This document shows positions 10,143-64,000 of a DNA stretch of 64,000 nt, in pieces. Both the position numbers and the translations under genes were made by a program. This stretch comes from Escherichia coli (GTDB lineage Bacteria; Pseudomonadota; Gammaproteobacteria; Enterobacterales; Enterobacteriaceae), in the NCBI RefSeq assembly GCF_017348835.2, contig NZ_CP071375.1, one strand, 5' to 3'. The notes under the pieces were generated by a model. The model searched no databases. It saw only the letters and a program-made list of their open reading frames with translations, and was not told the origin of the DNA. Numbering within the stretch: position 1 is the stretch's first letter; each line of letters begins with the position of its first letter.

Positions 10143-10841
10143 ATGCAAAAAAACGCTGCGCATACTTATGCCATTTCCAGCTTGTTGGTGCTTTCACTAA
10201 CCGGCTGCGCCTGGATACCCTCCACGCCGCTGGTGCAGGGGGCGACCAGTGCACAACCGGTTCCCGGTCCGACGCCCGTCGCCAACGGTTCTATTTTCCA
10301 GTCTGCTCAGCCGATTAACTATGGCTATCAACCGCTGTTTGAAGATCGTCGACCACGCAATATTGGCGATACGCTGACCATCGTGTTGCAGGAGAACGTC
10401 AGCGCCAGCAAAAGCTCCTCTGCGAATGCCAGCCGTGACGGTAAAACTAATTTTGGCTTTGATACTGTGCCGCGCTATTTGCAGGGGCTGTTTGGTAACG
10501 CTCGTGCCGATGTCGAAGCCTCCGGTGGTAACACGTTCAACGGAAAAGGCGGGGCCAATGCCAGCAATACCTTTAGCGGCACGTTGACGGTGACGGTTGA
10601 CCAGGTACTGGTCAACGGCAATCTGCATGTGGTGGGTGAAAAACAGATTGCCATTAATCAGGGTACCGAATTTATTCGCTTCTCTGGCGTGGTTAATCCA
10701 CGCACTATCAGCGGCAGCAATACCGTACCGTCTACTCAGGTGGCGGATGCGCGCATTGAATACGTAGGCAATGGCTACATTAACGAAGCGCAAAATATGG
10801 GCTGGTTGCAGCGTTTCTTCCTTAACCTGTCGCCAATGTAA
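10143..10841 (+). CDS. flgH: flagellar L-ring lipoprotein FlgH
   Basis: Start moved to ATG 10143 ([24 protein letters not shown], lipobox LTGC), 232 aa. Confidence 0.9.
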
Positions 10842-55099: not shown

Positions 55100-56146
55100 T
55101 TAACGTCCTGCTTTCAGCTTCTGATAATACTCTTCATAAATGCTGCTGGCTGCGCCAACGTCATTCTGCCATTCGCCATTTTTAATGGTTTCAGCATCCG
55201 GGTAGAGCGTCTTATCGTTCGCCACTTCTGGACTTAACAGCTTACGCGCCGCAAGGTTTGGCGTTGGATAACCGATAGTTTCAGCAACCTGTTTTGCCAC
55301 ATCCGGGCGCAGCAGGAAGTTGATCAATTTCAGCGCGCCTTCTTTGTTTTTGGCATTTGCCGGGATCGCCAGGCTGTCCATCCAGAATATGCCGCCTTCT
55401 TTCGGCCACACCACGTCAATAGGCGTACCCGCCTGGCGTGCAACGAAAGCAGAACCGTTCCAGATCATGCCGAGGTTAACTTCGCCTTCCATGTACGGGT
55501 TAGCCGGGTTATCGGAGTTAAACGCTGCGACGTTTGGCATCAGTTTTTTCAGCTCGTTATATGCAGCTTCAATCTCTTTCGGATCGGTGGTGTTACCGGA
55601 GTAGCCCAGCTTACGTAGCGCCATCTGGAACACTTCACGGGCATCGTCGGTCAGCAGCAGGCTGCCTTTGTACTCAGGCTTCCACAAATCGGCCCAGCTG
55701 GTGACAGATTTCGGATCCACCGCATCACCGTTAACGCCAATCGCCGTCGCACCCCAGATATACGGAATGGAGTAATCGTTATTCGGGTCAAACGGCTTAT
55801 TGAGCATGTCTGGATCGAGATTGCTGAAGTTCGTTAACTTCGACTTGTCGATCTTCTGGATCATCCCTTCTTTACGCATTTTATCGACGTAATAGGTTGA
55901 AGGAACCACCAGGTCATAGGCACCGTCTTTGTACGTTTTCAGCTTGGCATACATGGTTTCGTTCGACTCGTAAGTCGAATAGATAACCTTAATACCGGTT
56001 TCTTTGGTGAACTGTTCAAGCAGTCCTGGCGGCACGTACTCGGTCCAGTTGTAGAAATACAGCGTGTTGTTGTCATCGGCGTGAGCGGCGCTCATGCCCA
56101 GTGCCAGAGCACCCGCCGCGAGCAGGTGGCGTGACCATTTTTTCAT
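55100..56146 (-). CDS. potD: spermidine/putrescine ABC transporter periplasmic binding protein
   Basis: 348-aa ORF with signal peptide, recognised as PotD. Confidence 0.94.
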   Translation of the reverse strand: MKKWSRHLLAAGALALGMSAAHADDNNTLYFYNWTEYVPPGLLEQFTKETGIKVIYSTYESNETMYAKLKTYKDGAYDLVVPSTYYVDKMRKEGMIQKIDKSKLTNFSNLDPDMLNKPFDPNNDYSIPYIWGATAIGVNGDAVDPKSVTSWADLWKPEYKGSLLLTDDAREVFQMALRKLGYSGNTTDPKEIEAAYNELKKLMPNVAAFNSDNPANPYMEGEVNLGMIWNGSAFVARQAGTPIDVVWPKEGGIFWMDSLAIPANAKNKEGALKLINFLLRPDVAKQVAETIGYPTPNLAARKLLSPEVANDKTLYPDAETIKNGEWQNDVGAASSIYEEYYQKLKAGR

Positions 56147-56937
56147 TTAACGTCCCCTGTGTTACCTTTCGTTTTATCACGAGCAATAAGCTGGCTGGCA
56201 ATAACCATCACCAGCGACAGCACCAGTAATATGGTTGCCAGCGCGTTAACTTCCGGCGATACGCCGACTTTGACCATCGAATAAATTTTTAACGGCAGAA
56301 TTTCATAACTCGGCCCAGTGACGAACGAAGAAACAACCACATCGTCCATCGACAGGGTAAAGCTTAACACCCAGCCCGCCGCCACCGCTGGCATTGCCAG
56401 TGGCAGAATGATTTTTCGCAGAATGGTAAATTCGCTGGCACCGAGATCTTTCGCCGCTTCCAGCATTCGCACGTCAAAACCTTTCAGGCGCGAATACACC
56501 GTCACCACCACAAATGGCAGGCAGAAGGTGATATGCGAGAACAGCAGCGACCAGAAGCCAAGCTGAATACCCAGCAGCATAAACAGCACCAGCAGCGAAA
56601 TTGCCATCACGATATCTGGTGACATCATTACCACAAACAGCATTCCGCTAACGAACGGCTTACCACGAAAGCGATAACGGTACAGTGCAACTGCCGTCAG
56701 TGAACCGATAAGCGTAGCAAACGTCGCTGAAAACACCGCCATCGTCAATGAATGCTGAGCTGCCTGCAACAGACTGTCGTTGTTCATCAGCAGGCTATAC
56801 CATTTAGTGGTAAAACCCTGCCAGTTGATGCCAAAGCGCGAGCTGTTGAAAGAGTTCACAATCAAAATAATGATTGGAATATACAGGTACGCGTAGATAG
56901 CGGTCATAAAACCGCCGCGAAGCAGTCGACCGATCAT
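56143..56937 (-). CDS. potC: spermidine/putrescine ABC transporter permease
   Basis: 264-aa ORF recognised as PotC; 4-nt overlap with potD. Confidence 0.94.
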   Translation of the reverse strand: MIGRLLRGGFMTAIYAYLYIPIIILIVNSFNSSRFGINWQGFTTKWYSLLMNNDSLLQAAQHSLTMAVFSATFATLIGSLTAVALYRYRFRGKPFVSGMLFVVMMSPDIVMAISLLVLFMLLGIQLGFWSLLFSHITFCLPFVVVTVYSRLKGFDVRMLEAAKDLGASEFTILRKIILPLAMPAVAAGWVLSFTLSMDDVVVSSFVTGPSYEILPLKIYSMVKVGVSPEVNALATILLVLSLVMVIASQLIARDKTKGNTGDVK

Positions 56938-56969
56938 TCGAGTTCCACCTTTTTATTCATAAGGCGGGA
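56934..56969 (-). pseudogene. potB: 3'-terminal remnant of potB, cut off by the prophage junction
   Basis: Minus-strand frame ending in TGA that overlaps the potC ATG (ATGA) encodes ...SRLMNKKVELE; this matches my recollection of the PotB C-terminus, and the frame is open for only 37 codons (to 57047) with no membrane-permease body upstream. Confidence 0.45.
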
Positions 56970-57245
56970 CACTTTCAGGTTTTTGAATTTATTCAATTTT
57001 TTCCTTTCTCCAAAATCTCTCCAAAACTTTTCCCCAAAACAGGACCACGCATTTTACAGCATTTTTATACATGGGTGAGCTTACTAGGACAGAAAAGTAT
57101 TCCAGTTTGTTTACCCATATCGCTTTCCGAATGAGATTTTTGATGTGATTTCTTCGTGTTGAAAAACCACATAATGTGGTATTAGAATTAGCTATCAAGA
57201 TTCACTTTGAATCCGTTTTGAATCCCATTGAACTCAGGAGTGACT

Positions 57246-57449
57246 ATGAAGCGTAAAAGTGTGGCTTTGTTACAAGCCATTGGCTCGGTTATAGCCCTGA
57301 GCCCGACGGTCGTTTCAGCAAATGGCATGCCAGCGAATCCAGTTTCCGCTTTGCGTCAGGATGCTGCGGCTATCAGAGGCGATTTCCAAAAAGCAATGGT
57401 ATCCGTTAACGTTGAAAAGCTGAACAATGCCAGATCAAAAAGAAAGTGA
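57246..57449 (+). CDS. small secreted protein, unknown function (prophage cargo)
   Basis: 67 aa, MKRKSVALLQAIGSVIALSPTVVSA is a signal peptide with a likely cleavage site after VSA; AGGAG Shine-Dalgarno 5 nt upstream; the listed ORF starts at an in-frame TTG at 57228. Confidence 0.55.
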   Translation: MKRKSVALLQAIGSVIALSPTVVSANGMPANPVSALRQDAAAIRGDFQKAMVSVNVEKLNNARSKRK

Positions 57450-57534
57450 GAACACCAAACTCACTTGTGAATAACAAAAGGATAATGAACTGGTTTCTCG
57501 AGTAATCGAAAATCCAGAGGTCTTAAACAGGGTT

Positions 57535-57894
57535 TTGGATAGTCCGCAGGTGCGGGCTATTGTTTGCCAGCATTTTCAGGGGCCTGTTCCGCCACCTTCA
57601 ATGCTTAAAAAGTATGATCAACTGGTGCCTGGGCTTGCAAATCGACTTGTTGAGTTGACCGAAAAAGAGCAGGCTCATCGCCATAAAACAGTGGCTGATA
57701 GCATTGATATTGCCAGAGATGGTCAAACAAAGGCTTTTTGGTTGGCAATATTGATCATCTTAGCTGCCACTGTCTTTGGCGTCATGGGGGAGACAGTTCT
57801 TGCCGGAACTCTCGTTTCAATAGATCTTGTTGCATTGGTTACGGCATTTATTGTTGGAAAACATTATTCTAAGCAGGAACCTGATCAAGATTAG
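57535..57894 (+). CDS. DUF2335-like two-transmembrane-helix membrane protein (prophage cargo)
   Basis: N-terminal PVPPPSMLKKYDQLVPGLANRLVELTEKEQAHRH followed by two hydrophobic helices; start uncertain (TTG 57535 or ATG 57601), no strong Shine-Dalgarno. Confidence 0.5.
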   Translation: MDSPQVRAIVCQHFQGPVPPPSMLKKYDQLVPGLANRLVELTEKEQAHRHKTVADSIDIARDGQTKAFWLAILIILAATVFGVMGETVLAGTLVSIDLVALVTAFIVGKHYSKQEPDQD

Positions 57895-57902
57895 TCTCCG
57901 AA

Positions 57903-57925
57903 CCCCGGTTGATGCCGGGGTTTTT
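57903..57925 (+). terminator. rho-independent terminator after the cargo cassette
   Basis: CCCCGG-TTGATG-CCGGGG followed by TTTTT, 9 nt after the stop codon. Confidence 0.8.
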
Positions 57926-57970
57926 ACACTAGCAAAGCAATATCAACATTTTTCAGCTGCATTTATTTCG

Positions 57971-59089
57971 TCAAACAACCAATTTAACCCATTCCTGACC
58001 ACGAGTATCGTTATAACGATCGGTGGTTGCTTGGACTTTATGTCCCAGTAATGTTTTTGTATCAATACCCTGCGCGCGGTACAGTCGTTCTGACAGGGAG
58101 CGTTGTTCATGAAATGTTGGCGGAGTTTTTCCTGCTGGTGGAGTTATCCCAGCCAGATCCCGTGCTTTGGCAAAGTAGTCGCTCAGGTTGTCTTTACTCA
58201 TCGGCTTTGGTTGTTTCTGGTGCCGACTATGGATTAGATATGGACTTAATATTCTGTCTCGGCACCCATCAATAACTTCTTTTAACGTTATCCCAATGGC
58301 ATCACAGCGTAGTGTAAGCGGTAACGCCAGACGCATTCCGGTTTTTCCCTGGGTGATATGCAAGTGTTCGTTCCACACATCTGAAAAACGCATGTGGCAA
58401 ATGTCATCACGGCGCTGACCAGTAACAATCGCAAGAAGCATTGCGTTACGGATAAAGTGTTTTTCAGGCGTTGCGTTGTAAATTTTTTGCCAGTCTTCCA
58501 GGGTGAGCCTGGCTCTAGTTACTTTAGGGATCGGTTTACGGGTAGCCTCCGGAGGATTCCATCCAGGAGGAACTTCCCCTGCATGCTGTGCTTCTTTATA
58601 AATATCAACCCATAATCCACGATTTACTCTCGCTGTGCTGACCATGTCTTTATCCAGCCACTCATCCAGTATTAATGCAAAGTCTCTTACTTCCAGTTCT
58701 TTCAATGGGTGGTTTCCCAGACGGGAAACCAGGTATGCAGCCATTCGGGCTTTTTCTTTGTGAGTTGTAGCTGCAATATCTCCATTTTTCAGTCGCGTGT
58801 CCTGTATTTTCAGATATCGATCAACCCATGCCTTTAATCTGATACCCCGACGCTTTGTTGCTGACGGACTTTCATCAATTTTGCGCATGAAATATTCAGC
58901 CTCTGCTGCAGCTATTCGCTGATTGGCTGTGGAAGCGATTTTTTCTGCCTTACCTTTGTCTGTTCCGAGCCCGTGAAATTTTCCAGTCACAGGGTTTTTA
59001 TACTGGTAGTAAACTCTGCCAGTTCTGCGATCAAATTTTTCGTAAAGTCCGGCTACGTCAGTGCTGTTTTTTCGTGGCCTCGGTGACAT
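57971..59089 (-). CDS. int: phage integrase (tyrosine recombinase, lambda Int family)
   Basis: 372 aa; lambda-Int-like C-terminal catalytic region (VTGQRRDDICHMRFSDV, PPTFHEQRSLSERLY, LLGHK, conserved Tyr in TDRYNDTRGQEW). Confidence 0.9.
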   Translation of the reverse strand: MSPRPRKNSTDVAGLYEKFDRRTGRVYYQYKNPVTGKFHGLGTDKGKAEKIASTANQRIAAAEAEYFMRKIDESPSATKRRGIRLKAWVDRYLKIQDTRLKNGDIAATTHKEKARMAAYLVSRLGNHPLKELEVRDFALILDEWLDKDMVSTARVNRGLWVDIYKEAQHAGEVPPGWNPPEATRKPIPKVTRARLTLEDWQKIYNATPEKHFIRNAMLLAIVTGQRRDDICHMRFSDVWNEHLHITQGKTGMRLALPLTLRCDAIGITLKEVIDGCRDRILSPYLIHSRHQKQPKPMSKDNLSDYFAKARDLAGITPPAGKTPPTFHEQRSLSERLYRAQGIDTKTLLGHKVQATTDRYNDTRGQEWVKLVV

Positions 59090-59336
59090 GAGTTAAAATC
59101 TCCTTCAGTGCATCATCATCGCCAGTATGAATTTCCGGCGCAATTCCTGTTTCACCAGGTCCAACAAATACTGCTCGGCGATCTATCAGCCAACGCCCAC
59201 GAATTTTTTGTGGTCTTGGAACGATGTATCCTAGTTTTCCGTATTTCACCAGGGTAGTGTTTGTTATTGGGAGACTGAACCGTTTTGGCTTCCACTCATC
59301 GAGCGTTATCAGGTACTGTTCGCTCATGGCTATCAC
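59058..59336 (-). CDS. xis: excisionase (Xis)
   Basis: 92 aa; YLITLDEW...GRWLIDRRAV resembles lambda Xis (MYLTLQEW...); 32-nt overlap with the int start as in lambda; start could be Met1 or Met4. Confidence 0.75.
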   Translation of the reverse strand: MIAMSEQYLITLDEWKPKRFSLPITNTTLVKYGKLGYIVPRPQKIRGRWLIDRRAVFVGPGETGIAPEIHTGDDDALKEILTHVTEATKKQH

Positions 59337-59388
59337 TCCGGAACGCGCCAGTTGCAGAATACCAACGACAACTGGCGACGGTTGAACA

Positions 59389-61860
59389 TTAAAAATCAGC
59401 CTGACTCGGGATCAGTTTTTGCCAGATAACTGAAACGTATTTTGCCTGATAACGGGCGTCATCAAGTGCATTATGGCGCTCACCTTCGAATGGAATAGCC
59501 GTTCTGGCATCGAAGTCTATGGCTTTCCCCAGCTCAACGATTGTGCGTACATCGCGATCGTTGTAGTAACGCCACGGGCAGGGGATCCCCTGCCGTTCGT
59601 ATGAACGGCGCAAAATCGTGTTATCGAAGTTGGCTCCATTTCCCCAGACCTGAACAAAAAATTCACCGGAGTTTTCGTCGATAAATTCCCGCAATTGTAA
59701 CAGTGCATCATCTAACGGGATTTCATCGGTCATAATGGCAGATTGCGCTTCGCGTGATTGCTTAAGCCACCATTTAATGGTGTCCCGATCAATGACTCCG
59801 CCAGCAGTTTCCAGATCGATAGTCTTACTAAATTCCGGTCCCATATCTCCGGTTTGCGGATCGAAAAATATTGCACCTATTGAGATGATCGGGGCATCAG
59901 GATTTTTTCCCATGGTTTCAAGGTCGATCATTAGATGGTCACACGTCCTGCTGGTGGATGTGATTTCTTGATGACCGTTCACCTTAATTGAGTGATCTGC
60001 CGTCTCGCCAGTTTCACTATCGCTGGCATGATGCTGATTGCCGCCAGTGTTCTCCTTGTGTGGATGTTCAGCGCCTTCCATTTTCTCCGGATCATCTTCC
60101 TGAACTTCAACCTGATACTCTTCATCGAATGTTTCCTGGTATGTTGCGTCGCCCATCACCGCGCCACAATCAGGGCAGTTGCCGCCGCCGGTCTGACCGC
60201 AGGCGGTGCAGGCTTTTTCCACTTCCTGTTGCGCCACTGGTTCAGGCTGTTTCGTTTCTGGCTCGTTTTGTAACGCATTTGGGCTGTTTTGTTCCGCTTT
60301 TTGGTAGTTCCGTTCCGATTCATGCTGGTTCTGGTTTACAGAATCGCGGGTCTGGATCCCCTTAACCCATTTCGGATCATTCGGGTCGCTAATCCCTGCA
60401 ACAAATTCTCCGCGAGAGGCAGCAAGCAACTTATCGGCGTCAGGCTGGCTGATATTGGCTGCCTGCATAATTTTGTTTACTTCGTCAGCGGTAACTTTTA
60501 CCGGCTCTGGTTGTGCGGTCGTGTCAGATGCACCAGTATTTTGTTGTGAACCTGAGTATGTACTGTTTTTGCGGGCGAAATATTCTTCTTTCGTGATTTC
60601 AGTAGCCCCGGCAGCCAGTGCCTTATCCAGACCAGAAAGTTTGTTTGCGCGACCGTATTTTTCGCCATCCTTGTCGGTGAAGAGGAAGTAGAACGGCCCC
60701 TCACGCTCTACAGATGGTTCGACTTCCACTTTGCATTCGGTTTTTTCGTTGTCCGGAATTGCCGTTTCCACTGCATCAGTTTCTGGTACTGGCGACGAGA
60801 GAGTATCAGTTGCGCTCTGATTTGTTCCTTCATCTTCAAACACGCCCTTTGTAGTCAGGTATTCAGTAATGTATTTGTTCAGTGCCACAGGGTCTTTGTG
60901 AATGTCGATCGGACGTTCACGGACAAGGCCAAAAATAGTCTGGCGGTCGTAGCGAAGGGCATCAGGCTGTTTGCGCATTGATGCCGAGATACGCTTCCAG
61001 TCTTCGCGGTCGTTGTCGATAACTTCATTTTTTGCCCAGCGATGGATGCTGCCGTCAATGTTTCCGGCATCCACATCACCAGGCCAGAGAGCGTAGGCCA
61101 GTTCGTCATCCAGTGTTTTCCATGTCTGCTTGTATTCGCGATGAATGGCAGCAATGACCGGGCTGATTTTTCCTGTTGAATTTTCAGTGTGCTGTTGATT
61201 GGTTCTGGCGCGGGCGAGATCAACAACAGACGTGTATTTTCCGGTTTCCTTGCGTTCACCTTCGCGACGTTTTTTCCAGATGCGCATCTCTGCCTGAATT
61301 TCGGGCCATTTGGCACCAGGCTTACATTTATGCTTAACCCACCCGATGGCATGCAGCTTAAGCTCCGGATACATGGCGTTAACTTCTGGCATTTTCATCA
61401 ACGCTTCAACGATATGTCCGTCGAATGTTGCCATGTCTTCCTGCAACAATTCCTGTGCGCTAATAACCATATCAACGGTGATGTTTTCACATGTGTCGAA
61501 CTTAACCATGACAGCGTTCTGTACTTCAGGGGCCAGCTTGTCAAAAGTGACGTTCATCGGATCTGATTCAGTCTCAACCGGAACAAAGGAAGCAGACTCC
61601 TCATCCCAGCGGTTTTCCTGCATATATTCAGCATCCCATGAATCGAGGGCAGGGCGGGGTATGCCAGGTTTATCCTCGCAGATAATAAATTTATAAGCGC
61701 AGTCCTGAGCAGCCGGATAATGTTCCAGGAATTGCCAGTGAAATTTTGCTCGAGCACGGCGTTCGTCGCCAGCTTCAATAGCTGTGGCTACAGCCACAGC
61801 GCCTTCTTCCCTTGTTGCCAGTTCGTCAGGAATGGCGGCGCAAATAAAGACTTTACTCAT
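59389..61860 (-). CDS. phage exonuclease of the family often annotated exodeoxyribonuclease VIII, with C-terminal DnaQ-like DEDDh 3'-5' exonuclease domain
   Basis: 823 aa; C-terminus carries Exo I (MIDLETMG), Exo II (VWGNGANFDNTIL) and Exo III (HNALDDARYQAKY) motifs; central acidic/Gln-Pro-rich segment with Zn-ribbon-like CTACGQTGGGNCPDCG; sits in the exo/recE slot of a lambdoid early-left operon. Confidence 0.75.
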   Translation of the reverse strand: MSKVFICAAIPDELATREEGAVAVATAIEAGDERRARAKFHWQFLEHYPAAQDCAYKFIICEDKPGIPRPALDSWDAEYMQENRWDEESASFVPVETESDPMNVTFDKLAPEVQNAVMVKFDTCENITVDMVISAQELLQEDMATFDGHIVEALMKMPEVNAMYPELKLHAIGWVKHKCKPGAKWPEIQAEMRIWKKRREGERKETGKYTSVVDLARARTNQQHTENSTGKISPVIAAIHREYKQTWKTLDDELAYALWPGDVDAGNIDGSIHRWAKNEVIDNDREDWKRISASMRKQPDALRYDRQTIFGLVRERPIDIHKDPVALNKYITEYLTTKGVFEDEGTNQSATDTLSSPVPETDAVETAIPDNEKTECKVEVEPSVEREGPFYFLFTDKDGEKYGRANKLSGLDKALAAGATEITKEEYFARKNSTYSGSQQNTGASDTTAQPEPVKVTADEVNKIMQAANISQPDADKLLAASRGEFVAGISDPNDPKWVKGIQTRDSVNQNQHESERNYQKAEQNSPNALQNEPETKQPEPVAQQEVEKACTACGQTGGGNCPDCGAVMGDATYQETFDEEYQVEVQEDDPEKMEGAEHPHKENTGGNQHHASDSETGETADHSIKVNGHQEITSTSRTCDHLMIDLETMGKNPDAPIISIGAIFFDPQTGDMGPEFSKTIDLETAGGVIDRDTIKWWLKQSREAQSAIMTDEIPLDDALLQLREFIDENSGEFFVQVWGNGANFDNTILRRSYERQGIPCPWRYYNDRDVRTIVELGKAIDFDARTAIPFEGERHNALDDARYQAKYVSVIWQKLIPSQADF

Positions 61861-61953
61861 TTTGTTTTAACCTCATGACAGATTTAAGGATGAACAAATC
61901 CCTGCCATTGCTGGCATATAAGAATGAAACCGGATATTTATTACGGAACTGTT

Positions 61954-62145
61954 TTAAAGACCTGCCGGGATTTCGATATTATCCTGGTGAATAACTTTAT
62001 CGACCGGGTAACAGTTACCGGGAATTTTCTGTTCGGTTGCTGCAGTCATACACTCCTGCATTGTCCTGTGAACACTGACTGCAATATCAACTGGCTCTCC
62101 GGAAACAAGAAAAACTGTCAGAACAAGTGCAAATGCTGTATTCAT
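61954..62145 (-). CDS. YdfD-like small membrane protein
   Basis: 63 aa from Met19 of the listed ORF (MNTAFALVLTVFLVSGEPVD...); its ATG overlaps the dicB-like stop as ATGA; hydrophobic N-terminus; resembles my recollection of Qin prophage YdfD. Confidence 0.55.
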   Translation of the reverse strand: MNTAFALVLTVFLVSGEPVDIAVSVHRTMQECMTAATEQKIPGNCYPVDKVIHQDNIEIPAGL

Positions 62146-62330
62146 TGCCAGCATCCTTTTTGTATCGGACGTAAACGGGCCAACATTGAAAGAATGCATA
62201 TTTTATTTAATAGCTCCCGTTCGTGTTTTCTCTTGTTAATGGCATCTTCAGTAAATACAGGGTTACTGATAGTGACACCAATTTCAAAACAACCTTCAGA
62301 CGTATTAACGTTTGGTAATAACGTTTTCAT
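62142..62330 (-). CDS. dicB: DicB-like cell-division inhibitor
   Basis: 62 aa from the internal Met of the listed ORF (MKTLLPNVNTSEGCFEIGVTISNPVFTEDAINKRKHERELLNKICILSMLARLRPIQKGCWQ); GAGGG Shine-Dalgarno 8 nt upstream; closely matches remembered DicB; lies directly downstream of the DicF-type sRNA. Confidence 0.65.
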   Translation of the reverse strand: MKTLLPNVNTSEGCFEIGVTISNPVFTEDAINKRKHERELLNKICILSMLARLRPIQKGCWQ

Positions 62331-62499
62331 TATCGCGCCCTCAACAATGAGTTTTGTGATGCGGTGCCTGGTGCCTCCAGGTGACGTTAACCAGTTAACA
62401 ACTAACGCCGGATACAGAGAATCCAACCATAACACTGTTTTTGGTTTTAACTGTTCCGCGTGCGCTTAGCCGCATTCACCGCATCACAAAATTCACTTT

Positions 62500-62557
62500 A
62501 AAAAGGGCGGCAGAGCAGTCACGGAGTAAAACTGATACCGCCAAACGTCACCAGAAA
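62500..62557 (-). ncRNA. dicF: DicF-type small RNA with 3' terminator
   Basis: Minus strand reads TTTCTGGTGACGTTTGGCGGTATCAGTTTTACTCCGTGACTGCTCTGCCGCCC followed by TTTTT; I recognise this 53-nt sequence as DicF; position immediately upstream of the dicB-like gene fits. Confidence 0.75.
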
Positions 62558-62819
62558 ATTGATAACAGAGGGCGTTGCAGCGGGGTTGTCACTTAAGCGT
62601 ATGGTCAACCTGACAACCCGGTGTCCTCAACGGGGGAAGGAATAACCCCGCCATACTTACCGCCGCGCCATTTCGCGGATTGCCACAACCAGAAGCGCAC
62701 GGTCGAAGAAATTTAACGACAAGACTTATATGCAAAGGGATCTCGCCGTGCGCTTTCGTGTTATGCCCTGACTTTTCAGGGTAAATTAACCTGTGGAAAC
62801 CTGTTTTTACTGGCGCTAA

Positions 62820-63059
62820 TCAGTTAGCGTTTCTGGCTAACCAGCGATGCGCGGCAGCTTCGGTTTTAAACGTTTTACTTTTGGTATACGTCATCGCGGT
62901 AAACGTGCCGTCCTGATTGGGAAACACGCCACATACCAGAGATTCGTTGTTGCCAAGCTCGATAGTATCCATGCTGACCTCATTTCCCCTTAACGCTGGG
63001 GTAGCGGAACTAAAAACCTGCTGCGCTGTTATACAAAGTGTTCCCGCCGTCATGTTCAT
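62820..63059 (-). CDS. DUF1391 protein (YdfA / YdaF-like)
   Basis: C-terminal 50 aa (MDTIELGNNESLVCGVFPNQDGTFTAMTYTKSKTFKTEAAAHRWLARNAN) resemble the prophage YdfA/YdaF family; an internal ATG at 62972 has a good Shine-Dalgarno (GAGG, 6 nt), so the true product may be the 50-aa form. Confidence 0.55.
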   Translation of the reverse strand: MNMTAGTLCITAQQVFSSATPALRGNEVSMDTIELGNNESLVCGVFPNQDGTFTAMTYTKSKTFKTEAAAHRWLARNAN

Positions 63060-63153
63060 ACGCCTCGGGCTGGCTACTTAATCCCTGACCACAGCCGGGT
63101 AACTCTAGGTATTGCCCTGTATTGTGTGGGACGGGATGGGTTGGTATGGGAAA

Positions 63154-63195
63154 ACTATAGGAAATGCCTAATTGCTTGTCAATAGGCCATGCCTA
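63154..63195 (-). promoter_or_regulatory. PL-like early-left promoter with repressor operators
   Basis: Minus strand TTGACA (63182-63177) -17 nt- TATAGT (63159-63154); flanked by TAGGA-AAT-GCCTA (63158-63170) and TAGGC-CAT-GCCTA (63183-63195), the same TAGGC-N3-GCCTA motif found at the PR-like promoter. Confidence 0.6.
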
Positions 63196-63290
63196 ATGAT
63201 TTGGGTGCGACCTAATAGGTGATGGTTTGTGGGAGAGATAGTAGGAGTTAACTAACGGGAACTAGGAATTTCCCGTCGGACCATATAAGT

Positions 63291-63767
63291 TTAAGTTCCT
63301 GTCTTGGTGATGTTCTGGCTTTTCCGTTTTGATTCTTGATTTTTCAGATAGTTAGCTACCTTCATTTCCATTGCGGCAATGTAGGCGCGAACGTCATGAT
63401 CAACCCAACTAGGCTCCGTAGCATTTCCAGATAAGAGGAAAGCCACAATTGCTCTTTTTTCATCAGAGGCGGCTTGATAAAGGCTGTTTATGTCTAAAAG
63501 TTCACTTTTTGTATCTGAAGTGGATGGGGTTGGTATGGGGTATTCGTTAAGCCCCCAATGCTCTGGACCAACCACATCAGAAAAGAAACGCCATAGTTCT
63601 GGAAGTTTGTCTTTACTTATCGAACCTTTCTTAATCCAGTCATGGATTGATGGTGGTTGGACTTTGAAATGACGTGCGATTTCCGCCTTTGATTTGACGG
63701 CTCCTGATGCAATTTTTTTGTTAATGGCCTGCTCTATCGCTCGGCCTAAGTCTTTACCACTAAGCAT
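63291..63767 (-). CDS. prophage repressor (CI-equivalent; RacR-like)
   Basis: 158 aa; HTH-like segment SKAEIARHFKVQPPSIHDWIKKG; located between PL-like and PR-like promoter/operator regions and divergent from the Cro-like gene; AGGAG Shine-Dalgarno. Confidence 0.65.
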   Translation of the reverse strand: MLSGKDLGRAIEQAINKKIASGAVKSKAEIARHFKVQPPSIHDWIKKGSISKDKLPELWRFFSDVVGPEHWGLNEYPIPTPSTSDTKSELLDINSLYQAASDEKRAIVAFLLSGNATEPSWVDHDVRAYIAAMEMKVANYLKNQESKRKSQNITKTGT

Positions 63768-63794
63768 TGCTTAATAGTCTCCTATGCGCATCGC

Positions 63795-63864
63795 GTTAGG
63801 CAATCCCTACTCTCGAAGCGTTAGGCATAGCCTATTGACAATCGCATTAGGCTAAGCCTAATAT
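63795..63864 (+). promoter_or_regulatory. PR-like promoter with three operator sites
   Basis: TTGACA (63835-63840), 18-nt spacer, TAATAT (63859-63864); operators TAGGC-AAT-CCCTA (63797-63809, imperfect), TAGGC-ATA-GCCTA (63822-63834) and the 17-bp perfect palindrome ATTAGGCT-A-AGCCTAAT (63846-63862) overlapping spacer and -10. Confidence 0.6.
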
Positions 63865-63891
63865 TATTGTGTGTTTTTTGGAGTTCATTCG

Positions 63892-64000
63892 ATGAAAAAA
63901 GATAACTATTCATTCAAACGAGCTTGTGCTGTTGTCGGTGGGCAATCAGCAATGGCTAGGCTTTTAGGTGTATCTCCTCCAAGCGTAAATCAATGGATCA
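63892..64000 (+). CDS. Cro-like / YdaS-like HTH protein (5' part only; truncated by window end)
   Basis: MKKDNYSFKRACAVVGGQSAMARLLGVSPPSVNQWI, HTH motif, GGAG Shine-Dalgarno about 9 nt upstream, divergent from the repressor. Confidence 0.6.
   Translation, partial: MKKDNYSFKRACAVVGGQSAMARLLGVSPPSVNQWI

Follow-up and report, generated by a model that had tools for sequence, protein, structure and literature searches.

The closest described system is the Rac prophage of E. coli K-12, in which binding of the repressor RacR to its sites was demonstrated by electrophoretic mobility shift assays (EMSA; three complexes) and ChIP-qPCR at three GCCTAA/TTAGGC repeats (PMC5700373). DNase I footprinting yielded a RacR consensus, and the ydaS promoter (PydaS) and the racR promoters PracR1-3 were mapped (PMC9638921); the consensus, published in 2017 and 2022, reads (T/A)TAGGC-n3-GCCTA(T/A) (PMC5700373, PMC9638921). 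In addition, four inverted repeats were described in K-12, and RacR was found to be an octamer by size-exclusion chromatography (PMC11014345). The model proposed for K-12 lines up this octamer as four dimers on the four adjacent right-hand dyads, and the RacR regulon was called uncharacterised. RNA-seq showed that the leftward K-12 genes ydaG, ydaF, kilR, ydaE, racC, ydaC and ralA go up 40- to 70-fold when RacR falls (PMC6765115). No solved structure of RacR was found.

Here, we analysed a 64-kb stretch of E. coli DNA (the window), which contains a related repressor gene close to its right end. This gene (63291..63767, minus strand) encodes a CI-analogue repressor of 158 amino acids, whose N-terminal domain is of the HTH type and whose C-terminal domain is non-S24. 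The open reading frame is RacR, since the protein is 92% identical to the K-12 RacR cluster (P0010) and RefSeq gives the name racR to a 99.9%-identical gene. No Pfam families were detected in the RacR of the window, and hence no S24/LexA-like cleavage domain was seen, while Peptidase_S24 is present in distant relatives that share the RacR N-terminal domain. Sequence similarity between RacR and lambda CI was not detectable. The divergent Cro-like gene ydaS (63893..64000, plus strand) is represented by its 5′ part only, as the end of the window cuts the gene. In the twin locus L001 the full ydaS matches Pfam YdaS_toxin (3.8e-30) and P22_Cro (1e-8), and ydaT, which lies outside the 64-kb window, matches Pfam YdaT_toxin. 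The racR-ydaS region as a whole is 87-88% identical to that of K-12, with the same dyads at homologous positions.

On the right side of racR, a PR-like promoter (PydaS) is found at 63835..63864 on the plus strand, with the -35 hexamer TTGACA (63835-63840), an 18-nt spacer and the -10 hexamer TAATAT (63859-63864), which together match 10 of 12 consensus positions. The original prediction, made from the sequence of the window, had TTGACA-18-TAATAT firing rightward into a Cro-like gene; the promoter is present at that place and the rightward gene is ydaS. Its hexamers are those of the K-12 ydaS promoter, which was mapped by primer extension and killed by substitution of the -10 (PMC9638921). Operator O1, the exact dyad TAGGCTAAGCCTA (63848-63860), lies within the perfect 17-bp palindrome ATTAGGCTAAGCCTAAT (63846..63862) and fills the PR spacer as well as the first 4 nt of the -10. 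A palindrome over the -10 had been predicted; it is indeed perfect over 17 bp, but most of it lies over the spacer and it reaches no more than 4 nt into the -10. In K-12, the O1 region is protected first, at the lowest RacR concentration (PMC9638921). The second exact dyad, O2 (TAGGCATAGCCTA, 63822..63834), adjoins the PR -35 on its upstream side.

The remaining two right-hand dyads are associated with racR itself. O3 (TAGGCAATCCCTA, 63797..63809) has 1 mismatch, and the O157 alleles carry the consensus G at 63805; the dyad belongs to the promoter region of racR, with its centre 36 bp before the ATG. The expectation that the motif copies overlap promoters was borne out at both PL and PR, but the dyad at 63797 is outside PR, in the racR promoter region. 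O4 (TAAGCATTGCTTA, 63761..63773) is degenerate, with 2 mismatches, and is centred on the racR ATG (63767-63765); its counterpart in K-12 is an operator with an n3 spacer that overlaps the racR ATG (PMC9638921). Close to it, a homologue of the PracR3 -10 was located by alignment at 63776..63781 on the minus strand, reading GAGACT here versus GAGAAT in K-12. PracR3, the leaderless racR promoter of K-12, was mapped using primer extension and mutations in its -10 (PMC9638921), and is putative in the present allele. The right operator, predicted to be tripartite, has four dyads. The degenerate one on the racR start codon is the fourth, and four inverted repeats were likewise counted in K-12 (PMC11014345). 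All four align column for column with the footprinted positions of the K-12 racR-ydaS intergenic region. From the 92% protein identity, the conserved sites and the K-12 experiments, RacR would be expected to bind and repress at the right operator of this allele.

The K-12 footprint and EMSA of RacR map to these repeats, and a 49-bp fragment with one repeat gives one RacR complex (PMC5700373, PMC9638921), which makes it improbable that the dyads are primarily sites of YdaS or YdaT and that RacR recognises something else nearby. Such a role is suggested by the fact that YdaS is an HTH protein encoded beside the dyads and is said to compete with RacR for operators (PMC11014345), and by a YdaT footprint over K-12 PydaS (PMC11879457). 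However, the YdaT box differs, being TTGATT-N6-AATCAA (PMC9986795), and across loci with differing neighbours the dyad goes together with the RacR N-terminal domain. YdaS reportedly does not repress racR in K-12 (PMC9638921). YdaS may also use the same dyads, which would be compatible with their explanation as the sites of a RacR switch.

On the left side of racR, a PL-like sigma-70 promoter (63154..63182, minus strand) faces away from the repressor gene. Its -35 TTGACA (63182-63177), 17-nt spacer and -10 TATAGT (63159-63154) match 11 of 12 consensus positions and agree exactly with the predicted leftward TTGACA-17-TATAGT promoter (63182-63154). The dyad OL1 (TAGGAAATGCCTA, 63158..63170) has 1 mismatch (half-site TAGGA); it fills the PL spacer and takes in 2 nt at the start of the -10, and the exact dyad OL2 (TAGGCCATGCCTA, 63183..63195) adjoins the PL -35 on its upstream side. 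The PL and PR cassettes of the window can be aligned to each other nearly base for base. A third left operator was also considered. The conserved palindrome ACCTAATAGGT (63210-63220), at a distance of 26 bp from the OL2 centre, was rejected as a general operator: its half-sites stand in the reverse arrangement, it has 3 mismatches as a dyad in an alternative register, and it is missing outside the E. coli type, where relatives have a terminator hairpin instead.

K-12 Rac and an O157:H7 prophage both carry the six dyads and the two promoters at homologous positions, with differences in the N3 spacers. Ten E. coli alleles, 86-100% identical and representing few independent lineages, were aligned by homology; among them, the variable columns numbered 2 of 60 in the half-sites, 0 of 20 in the promoter hexamers and 7 of 18 in the N3 spacers, compared with 77 of 223 in other non-coding DNA and 63 of 478 in coding DNA (half-sites versus other non-coding DNA, Fisher p = 1.8e-7). 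Of the two half-site columns that vary, one is 63162, the mismatch position of OL1. We also compared 23 loci that code for proteins related to RacR in the DNA-binding domain, among them loci of Mixta, Morganella, Proteus, Erwinia, Achromobacter, Burkholderia, Herbaspirillum and Hydrogenophaga, Klebsiella phage KpF5 and Pseudomonas phage D14H. In nearly all 23 loci, dyads stand about 60 and 35 bp before the repressor ATG, and 22 of them have a dyad over the ATG; the E. coli Rac type has four dyads. A PL-type cassette (dyad-TTGACA-6/7 nt-dyad-TAnnnT) on the repressor strand was found in 16 of the 23 loci, which range from Enterobacterales to Burkholderiales and include phages; it begins between 62 bp and 2.5 kb beyond the stop codon. 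The half-sites and TTGAC were the search criteria for this cassette, and their high conservation is partly built in, while the ten-allele comparison is free of this bias; the -10, which was outside the criteria, is 87% conserved versus 53% for the flanks. Seven of the 23 loci are without a cassette under the strict TTGAC search; phage D14H among them has a TTTACA version, and in the other six the cassette may lie beyond the compared DNA or be more diverged. The whole RacR immunity module is present in 1085 of the 5426 complete E. coli genomes of the RefSeq set searched.

These comparisons also bear on whether the left pair could be a non-functional relic of a PR duplication, with the leftward genes expressed by read-through from the racR promoters and a Rho-dependent terminator as the check. 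The near-duplicate PL and PR cassettes are in keeping with such an origin, and in K-12 the toxicity of kil in rho mutants was ascribed to read-through of a terminator inside racR, with no PL mentioned (PMC4150792). Yet the cassette has been retained on the downstream side of the repressor gene across bacterial orders at the varying distances given above, often directly after the intrinsic terminator that closes the repressor operon. In the E. coli alleles the hexamers are invariant and the half-sites nearly so, against 35% variable columns in neighbouring non-coding DNA. Moreover, a promoter this close to consensus (11 of 12 positions) would be lethal if it stood unrepressed upstream of dicB/dicF or kilR. 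We consider a relic slightly less probable still than primary recognition by YdaS or YdaT. Judged by conservation, the left pair and PL are clearly real elements, with the two dyads as putative RacR sites. The claim that one operator motif defines both PL-like and PR-like promoters flanking the repressor is supported, on the left side by comparison and by the K-12 RNA-seq data (PMC6765115). In the RacR/Rac literature covered (PMC5700373, PMC9638921, PMC11014345, PMC11879457, PMC6765115, PMC4150792, PMC5917428, PMC12482147), neither a left operator for RacR nor a PL promoter for Rac was found described, and we provisionally regard OL/PL as a modest, undescribed detail of a known switch.

The original prediction counted five copies of the 13-bp motif, with three on the right and two on the left side of the repressor gene, and these counts hold (three exact and two with one mismatch). 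In a pattern scan of the 64-kb window, TAGGCNNNGCCTA had 3 exact matches (63183-63195, 63822-63834 and 63848-63860). With at most one mismatch to TAGGC-N3-GCCTA there were 6 matches versus 1.23 expected, a number reached by no shuffle, and five of the six, namely the exact ones and those at 63158 and 63797, fall inside 63158-63860. The single further match of this quality in the window, at 10765 (TAGGCAATGGCTA, 1 mismatch), was discounted as an operator, as it fits the chance expectation. The motif is absent over the other 47 kb of the near-identical PE164 prophage, and a similar density of the motif elsewhere, which would have spoken against an operator, was not seen at this stringency. At up to two mismatches specificity is lost, and the scattered matches of this class were given no weight, with the exception of the positionally conserved 63761-63773. 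The composite cassette (site, TTGAC, and a site 23-27 bp further) occurs at only two places in the window, PL and PR. A position-weight matrix built from motif-selected sites, which is circular at the core positions and usable for the flanks only, gave a flanking A/T preference around the dyad (ATTAGGC...GCCTAAT). Chance or the composition of AT-rich intergenic DNA, with no regulatory role for the cluster, is practically negligible as an explanation, for although two-mismatch matches occur across the window at the expected frequency (22 versus 19.5), the 3 exact matches stand against none in each of 100 dinucleotide-preserving shuffles, 5 of the 6 near-exact matches lie within 0.7 kb, the composite cassette is absent from all 200 shuffles, and the sites are conserved across genera and covered by published footprints.

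Taken together, these results suggest that the interval is very probably the immunity module of a Rac-type lambdoid prophage, in which RacR dyads control the divergent promoters PL and PR. RacR dimers would bind the dyad ATTAGGC-N3-GCCTAAT. The two promoters share one layout, with one dyad in the spacer and the first -10 bases (O1 at PR, OL1 at PL) and a second dyad 25-26 bp off, against the upstream edge of the -35 (O2, OL2). Because one dyad lies over the spacer and -10 and the other abuts the -35, a bound pair would be expected to occlude RNA polymerase. Repression of PR would silence the Cro-like ydaS, ydaT and the replication genes beyond the window, and repression of PL would silence DUF1391, DicF and DicB and, given read-through, also the exonuclease, xis and int. 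O3 (at -36) and O4 (over the ATG) cover the racR promoter region and start codon and would exert negative autoregulation. We infer RacR binding at OL1 and OL2, PL activity, cooperative pairing and any OL-OR loop. Since RacR is without an S24 domain, induction would not proceed via RecA-stimulated self-cleavage, and lowered RacR synthesis or an antirepressor would be its probable route.

The genes that PL would serve begin with a DUF1391 (YdfA-like) gene at 62820..62972 on the minus strand (Pfam DUF1391, 3.4e-28), the first gene downstream of PL. It is followed on the same strand by the small RNA DicF (62505..62556; Rfam RF00039, 76.7 bits versus a gathering score of 48) and the cell-division inhibitor gene dicB (62142..62330; Pfam DicB, 9.2e-37), and then by a ydfD-like gene (61954-62145; Pfam DUF1482, 4e-26). 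Beyond these, the exonuclease (59389-61860), excisionase (59058-59327) and integrase (57971-59089) are encoded on the minus strand, as seen from the open reading frames and the annotation of the 100%-identical PE164 locus. Pfam, Rfam and annotation confirmed the anticipated leftward order of DUF1391, DicF, dicB, exo, xis and int, with the YdfD-like (DUF1482) gene between dicB and the exonuclease. A scan for intrinsic terminators between PL and int gave nothing above the shuffle expectation. A mosaic joint lies right at the PL -10/start.

Much of this system is already known and the lambdoid layout is ordinary, OL/PL being the exception; the general understanding of lambdoid switches is unchanged. 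The value lies in annotation and interpretation: here DicF, DicB and the excision genes are found behind a putative RacR-controlled promoter, versus control by DicA in K-12 Qin. In this strain, anything that lowers RacR would thus be expected to bring about filamentation and excision of the prophage. RacR-type immunity is common in E. coli, and the conserved OL/PL offers a direct explanation for the leftward derepression in K-12 and suggests an OL-OR loop. A wider reading, which we find plausible while leaning slightly against it as a whole, is that OL1 and OL2 on PL are functional, that the RacR octamer, instead of sitting as four dimers on the right-hand dyads, joins an OL1-OL2 tetramer to an O1-O2 tetramer and loops out about 640 bp with racR in the manner of lambda, and that the operator code and the PR/PL cassette are common to a wide repressor family with a retained RacR N-terminal domain and swapped C-terminal domains. 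Within this family, the RacR type would belong to Enterobacterales and the S24 self-cleaving type to Burkholderiales and Pseudomonas phages. If this wider reading is true, prophages of different genera and induction routes would be homoimmune at the DNA level.

Among the described systems, racR-ydaS of K-12 Rac has an orthologous repressor (92% amino acid identity), the same Cro-like neighbour, six dyads, the same PR hexamers, a PL cassette downstream of racR and a published consensus equal to the TAGGC-N3-GCCTA motif. In contrast, the N3 spacers and the PracR3 -10 (GAGACT here versus GAGAAT) differ; the leftward cargo is ydaG/ydaF/sieB/kilR/recET in K-12 and a Qin-like ydfA/DicF/dicB set with a large exonuclease here; and the K-12 site is in ttcA, whereas the present prophage lies beside potC (its PE164 twin between potC and potB).

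The lambda cI-cro region likewise has its repressor gene flanked by divergent early promoters, and copies of a single dyad overlap each of the two. The RacR site spacing of 25-26 bp is similar to that in lambda, where neighbouring operator sites are 23-24 bp apart. Both systems have division inhibitors and int/xis on the PL side, and both have a leaderless repressor mRNA (racR, K-12 data) and repressor octamers (RacR; PMC11014345). Unlike lambda, with 3 + 3 sites, the RacR region has 2 left and 4 right sites, with no general third left site; the 13-bp core of its dyad consists of 5-bp half-sites around a 3-bp spacer, one of the sites covers the start codon of the repressor gene, and a distance of only about 640 bp separates OL from OR. 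In addition, RacR has no S24 self-cleavage domain, and YdaS reportedly does not repress racR (PMC9638921). The original prediction that the right operator mirrors lambda OR1-OR3 is thus a loose analogy, given the 2 + 4 sites, the missing S24 domain and the reported lack of racR repression by YdaS.

The PaaR2-YdaS-YdaT region of CP-933P (E. coli O157:H7) resembles the present locus in its YdaS/YdaT-type Cro and CII analogues, in PR, PRM and PL with matching operators on both sides, and in an octameric repressor (PMC8630535). It differs in its repressor, PaaR2, in an operator of GTTTAGTAA-type repeats, and in a toxin-antitoxin pair within its repressor operon. In the Qin dicA-dicC/dicBp region, an operon of ydfA-like DUF1391, DicF, dicB and ydfD is similarly driven by the promoter that corresponds to PL in an immunity region (bioRxiv 10.1101/2023.04.14.536235). 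Here, however, this operon is joined to a RacR-type PL/OL and not to the DicA-controlled dicBp, and therefore DicF and DicB would answer to RacR rather than to DicA.

The sequence from 62400 to 64000 was inspected directly. The repressor gene racR (63291-63767, minus strand) encodes a 158-aa protein, sharing 92% identity with the RacR cluster of K-12, in which no Pfam domain was found, and no solved structure was found among the RacR relatives. To its right lies ydaS (plus strand), truncated by the window end; in the near-identical PE164 locus, the rightward gene encodes a YdaS/P22-Cro-type protein and is followed by the gene for YdaT. By megablast, the whole 63000-64000 segment is present in 1085 of 5426 complete E. 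coli genomes, where the underlying genes carry the names racR and ydaS or "helix-turn-helix protein".

Exact matches to TAGGCNNNGCCTA occur three times in the 64 kb (63183, 63822 and 63848) and in none of 100 dinucleotide-preserving shuffles. With at most one mismatch, there were six matches against 1.23 expected, five of them within 63158-63860 and the remaining one at 10765. The original prediction of five copies, three to the right and two to the left of the repressor gene, was recovered as three exact dyads and two with one mismatch, OL1 (TAGGAAATGCCTA, starting at 63158) and O3 (TAGGCAATCCCTA, starting at 63797). At two mismatches or fewer the motif is not above chance in the window (22 found against 19.5 expected); O4 is a match of this class (TAAGCATTGCTTA, 63761-63773), and its centre is the repressor start codon. 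The dyad centres are at 63164 (OL1), 63189 (OL2), 63767 (O4), 63803 (O3), 63828 (O2) and 63854 (O1), giving successive spacings of 25, 578, 36, 25 and 26 bp. No further site with at most one mismatch was found in the remaining 47 kb of the PE164 prophage.

A promoter scan of 62700-64000 returned only two sites, the leftward TTGACA-17-TATAGT of PL (63182 to 63154, minus strand, 11 of 12 consensus positions) and the rightward TTGACA-18-TAATAT of PR (63835 to 63864, plus strand, 10 of 12), which are the two promoters that had been predicted. At both, the proximal dyad takes up the spacer and runs into the -10, and the distal dyad ends one base ahead of the -35. The two cassettes (dyad-TTGAC(A)-dyad units) align nearly base for base. 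The palindrome predicted over the PR -10 is indeed perfect over 17 bp (ATTAGGCTAAGCCTAAT, 63846-63862), but it reaches the spacer and only the first four -10 bases. The PL leader (63104-63153, minus strand, the first 50 nt past the -10) is 40% C and 10% G, and the K-12 PL leader is similarly C-rich and G-poor. Rho loading sites typically have such a composition, which may bear on the known silencing of Rac genes by Rho.

In K-12, the 123-bp racR-ydaS intergenic region was reported in 2017 to contain three variant GCCTAA/TTAGGC repeats, RacR formed three complexes in EMSA and one with a single-repeat fragment, and ChIP-qPCR was positive (PMC5700373). In 2022, primer extension located the ydaS promoter TTGACA/TAATAT, which was eliminated when its -10 was substituted. 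Three promoters were also mapped for racR, and the strongest of these yields a leaderless transcript. DNase I footprints in the same study yielded the RacR consensus (T/A)TAGGC-n3-GCCTA(T/A), with the earliest protection over the ydaS promoter and the spacer of one operator overlapping the racR ATG (PMC9638921). A later study counted four inverted repeats and reported that RacR runs as an octamer in size-exclusion chromatography (PMC11014345); YdaT binding has been described as well (PMC11879457). When the window, K-12 and an O157:H7 prophage were aligned, all of these elements fell at homologous columns, the alleles differing mostly in the N3 spacers (e.g., TAA vs GTC in O1); the -10 homologue of the leaderless racR promoter is GAGACT (63776-63781). 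Judged by alignment, the window is therefore, in its motif, right operator and PR, another allele of the known RacR system. Every testable feature of a RacR-type immunity region is present. The idea that one operator motif serves both PL-like and PR-like promoters around the repressor was thus essentially right according to the scans and the comparison, and its novelty is low since these three elements were already published for RacR.

The left operator pair and PL appear to be undescribed in the literature searched, which mentions no operators or promoter downstream of racR. There, the RacR regulon is called not characterised, the octamer is related to the four right-hand repeats (PMC11014345), and another group explains kil toxicity by transcription running through a Rho-dependent terminator located in racR (PMC4150792). 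In K-12, too, TAGGTAATGCCTA and TAGGCTATGCCTA flank a TTGACA-17-TATAGT promoter. Among ten E. coli alleles (86-100% identical, aligned by homology rather than by motif), variable columns made up 2 of 60 half-site positions, both already off consensus, 0 of 20 promoter hexamer positions, 7 of 18 N3 spacer positions, 77 of 223 other non-coding positions and 63 of 478 coding positions (half-sites vs other non-coding, Fisher p = 1.8e-7). When RacR is reduced in K-12, RNA-seq shows ydaG, ydaF, kilR, ydaE, racC, ydaC and ralA up 40- to 70-fold, and Rac excises when RacR expression falls (PMC6765115, PMC11014345); the RNA-seq fits a leftward unit under RacR control. The comparative sequence evidence for the OL pair and PL is strong, although they are a useful detail rather than a surprise because the arrangement is standard for lambdoid prophages. 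Between the racR stop codon and OL2 lies an 11-bp palindrome (ACCTAATAGGT, 63210-63220) with operator-like half-sites arranged in reverse, unchanged across the E. coli Rac-type alleles in spite of variable flanks, and absent from other genera.

Relatives were sampled at 17 loci, each species being represented by a single genome, and in three phages, making 23 loci with the window, K-12 and O157. In nearly all loci, dyads lie about 60 and 35 bp ahead of the repressor ATG, and in 22 of 23 there is another over the ATG itself; the E. coli Rac type, with an additional right-hand dyad, has four. The repressor strand of 16 of the 23 loci carries a cassette dyad-TTGACA-6/7 nt-dyad-TAnnnT, at 62 bp to 2.5 kb past the repressor stop codon; such a cassette occurs neither elsewhere in the window nor in any of 200 shuffles. 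Apart from these 16, Pseudomonas phage D14H has a version with TTTACA. Although the -10 was left out of the search criteria, it is 87% conserved, compared to 53% for the flanks, in ten non-redundant PL cassettes. The start-codon-centred dyad TAGGCnATGCTTA occurs in 19 of the 20 relatives' loci (L004-L023, except L013), and its half-site GCTTA may be what keeps the Met-Leu protein start invariant. In E. coli Rac-type loci, a second mismatch is present in this dyad, and the extra dyad lies upstream of it. Putative cargo genes separate distant cassettes from the repressor gene, with the hairpin of an intrinsic terminator ahead of the distal dyad. PL lies 0.8-2.5 kb past the repressor gene, with intervening DNA, in L011, L012, L014, L017, L018 and L022; the hairpin is immediately ahead of the distal left dyad in L012, L017, L018 and L022, and Klebsiella phage KpF5 (L022 4149-5303) encodes a DUF450 protein in the interval.

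The DNA-binding domain of RacR (residues 1-75, 63543-63767) is 50-77% identical in repressors that fuse a RacR-like N-terminal domain to Peptidase_S24, from Achromobacter, Herbaspirillum, Azoarcus, Hydrogenophaga and phage D14H (L011, L014-L019 and L023). At most of these loci TAGGC-N3-GCCTA-like dyads persist, although those of D14H are weaker, and L011, L014, L017, L018 and L023 have a PL cassette. Since these relatives keep the same dyads and cassettes, RacR looks like a derivative that exchanged its C-terminal domain and retained its operator code.

The predicted leftward order was recovered from ORFs, annotation, Pfam and Rfam as DUF1391 (YdfA-like), DicF (76.7 bits in Rfam), dicB, ydfD-like, a large exonuclease, excisionase and integrase. 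Directly downstream of DicF, overlapping the region upstream of dicB, is a sub-threshold STnc100 match (62353-62493, minus strand, 37.6 bits vs a gathering score of 47). This cargo is a dicBF operon of the Qin type, here joined to a PL of the RacR type; in Qin, a full-length dicBF transcript was not seen (bioRxiv 10.1101/2023.04.14.536235). From PL to int, a scan for intrinsic terminators gave no more hits than expected from shuffled sequence. Among other E. coli prophages, those lacking racR have just 63000-63148 in common with the window (83-94% identity), so the mosaic joint falls at the PL -10/start. K-12 Rac homology starts at about 62985. The unit of exchange is the immunity module, with PL as its boundary. 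PE164 matches window positions 58313-62978 at 100% identity, the sole difference being an IS3-family element (L001 4667-5976) inserted at about 62976-62978 between PL and the DUF1391 gene, which would uncouple the dicBF genes from PL. The PE164 prophage sits between potC and potB, breaking up the potABCD operon; only the left junction is within the window (55854-57066), and about 900 bp from potC to int (57067-57965) are missing from the O157 relative. Inside its lysis region, the PE164 prophage encodes an antirepressor N-terminal-domain protein (L028 14696-15250), a candidate inducer for a repressor incapable of self-cleavage.

Most likely, RacR dimers would occupy both dyads of each early promoter pairwise and exclude RNA polymerase, and O3 with O4 would allow negative autoregulation at the leaderless promoter of racR. 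We infer OL binding by RacR, PL activity, cooperativity and looping. That the RacR octamer holds an OL-OR loop, with an operator code common to repressors of differing C-terminal domains, is a tentative proposal, somewhat short of probable.

As at this locus, lambda uses one operator code on both early promoters. In contrast, lambda has three sites per set, and the tripartite right operator predicted after OR1-OR3 was replaced by four right-hand sites, giving a count of 2 + 4; RacR also lacks the S24 self-cleavage domain that marks the lambda type. The interval between the repressor gene and a distant PL in the relatives, possibly a slot for defence genes, resembles the position of rexAB/timm in lambda.
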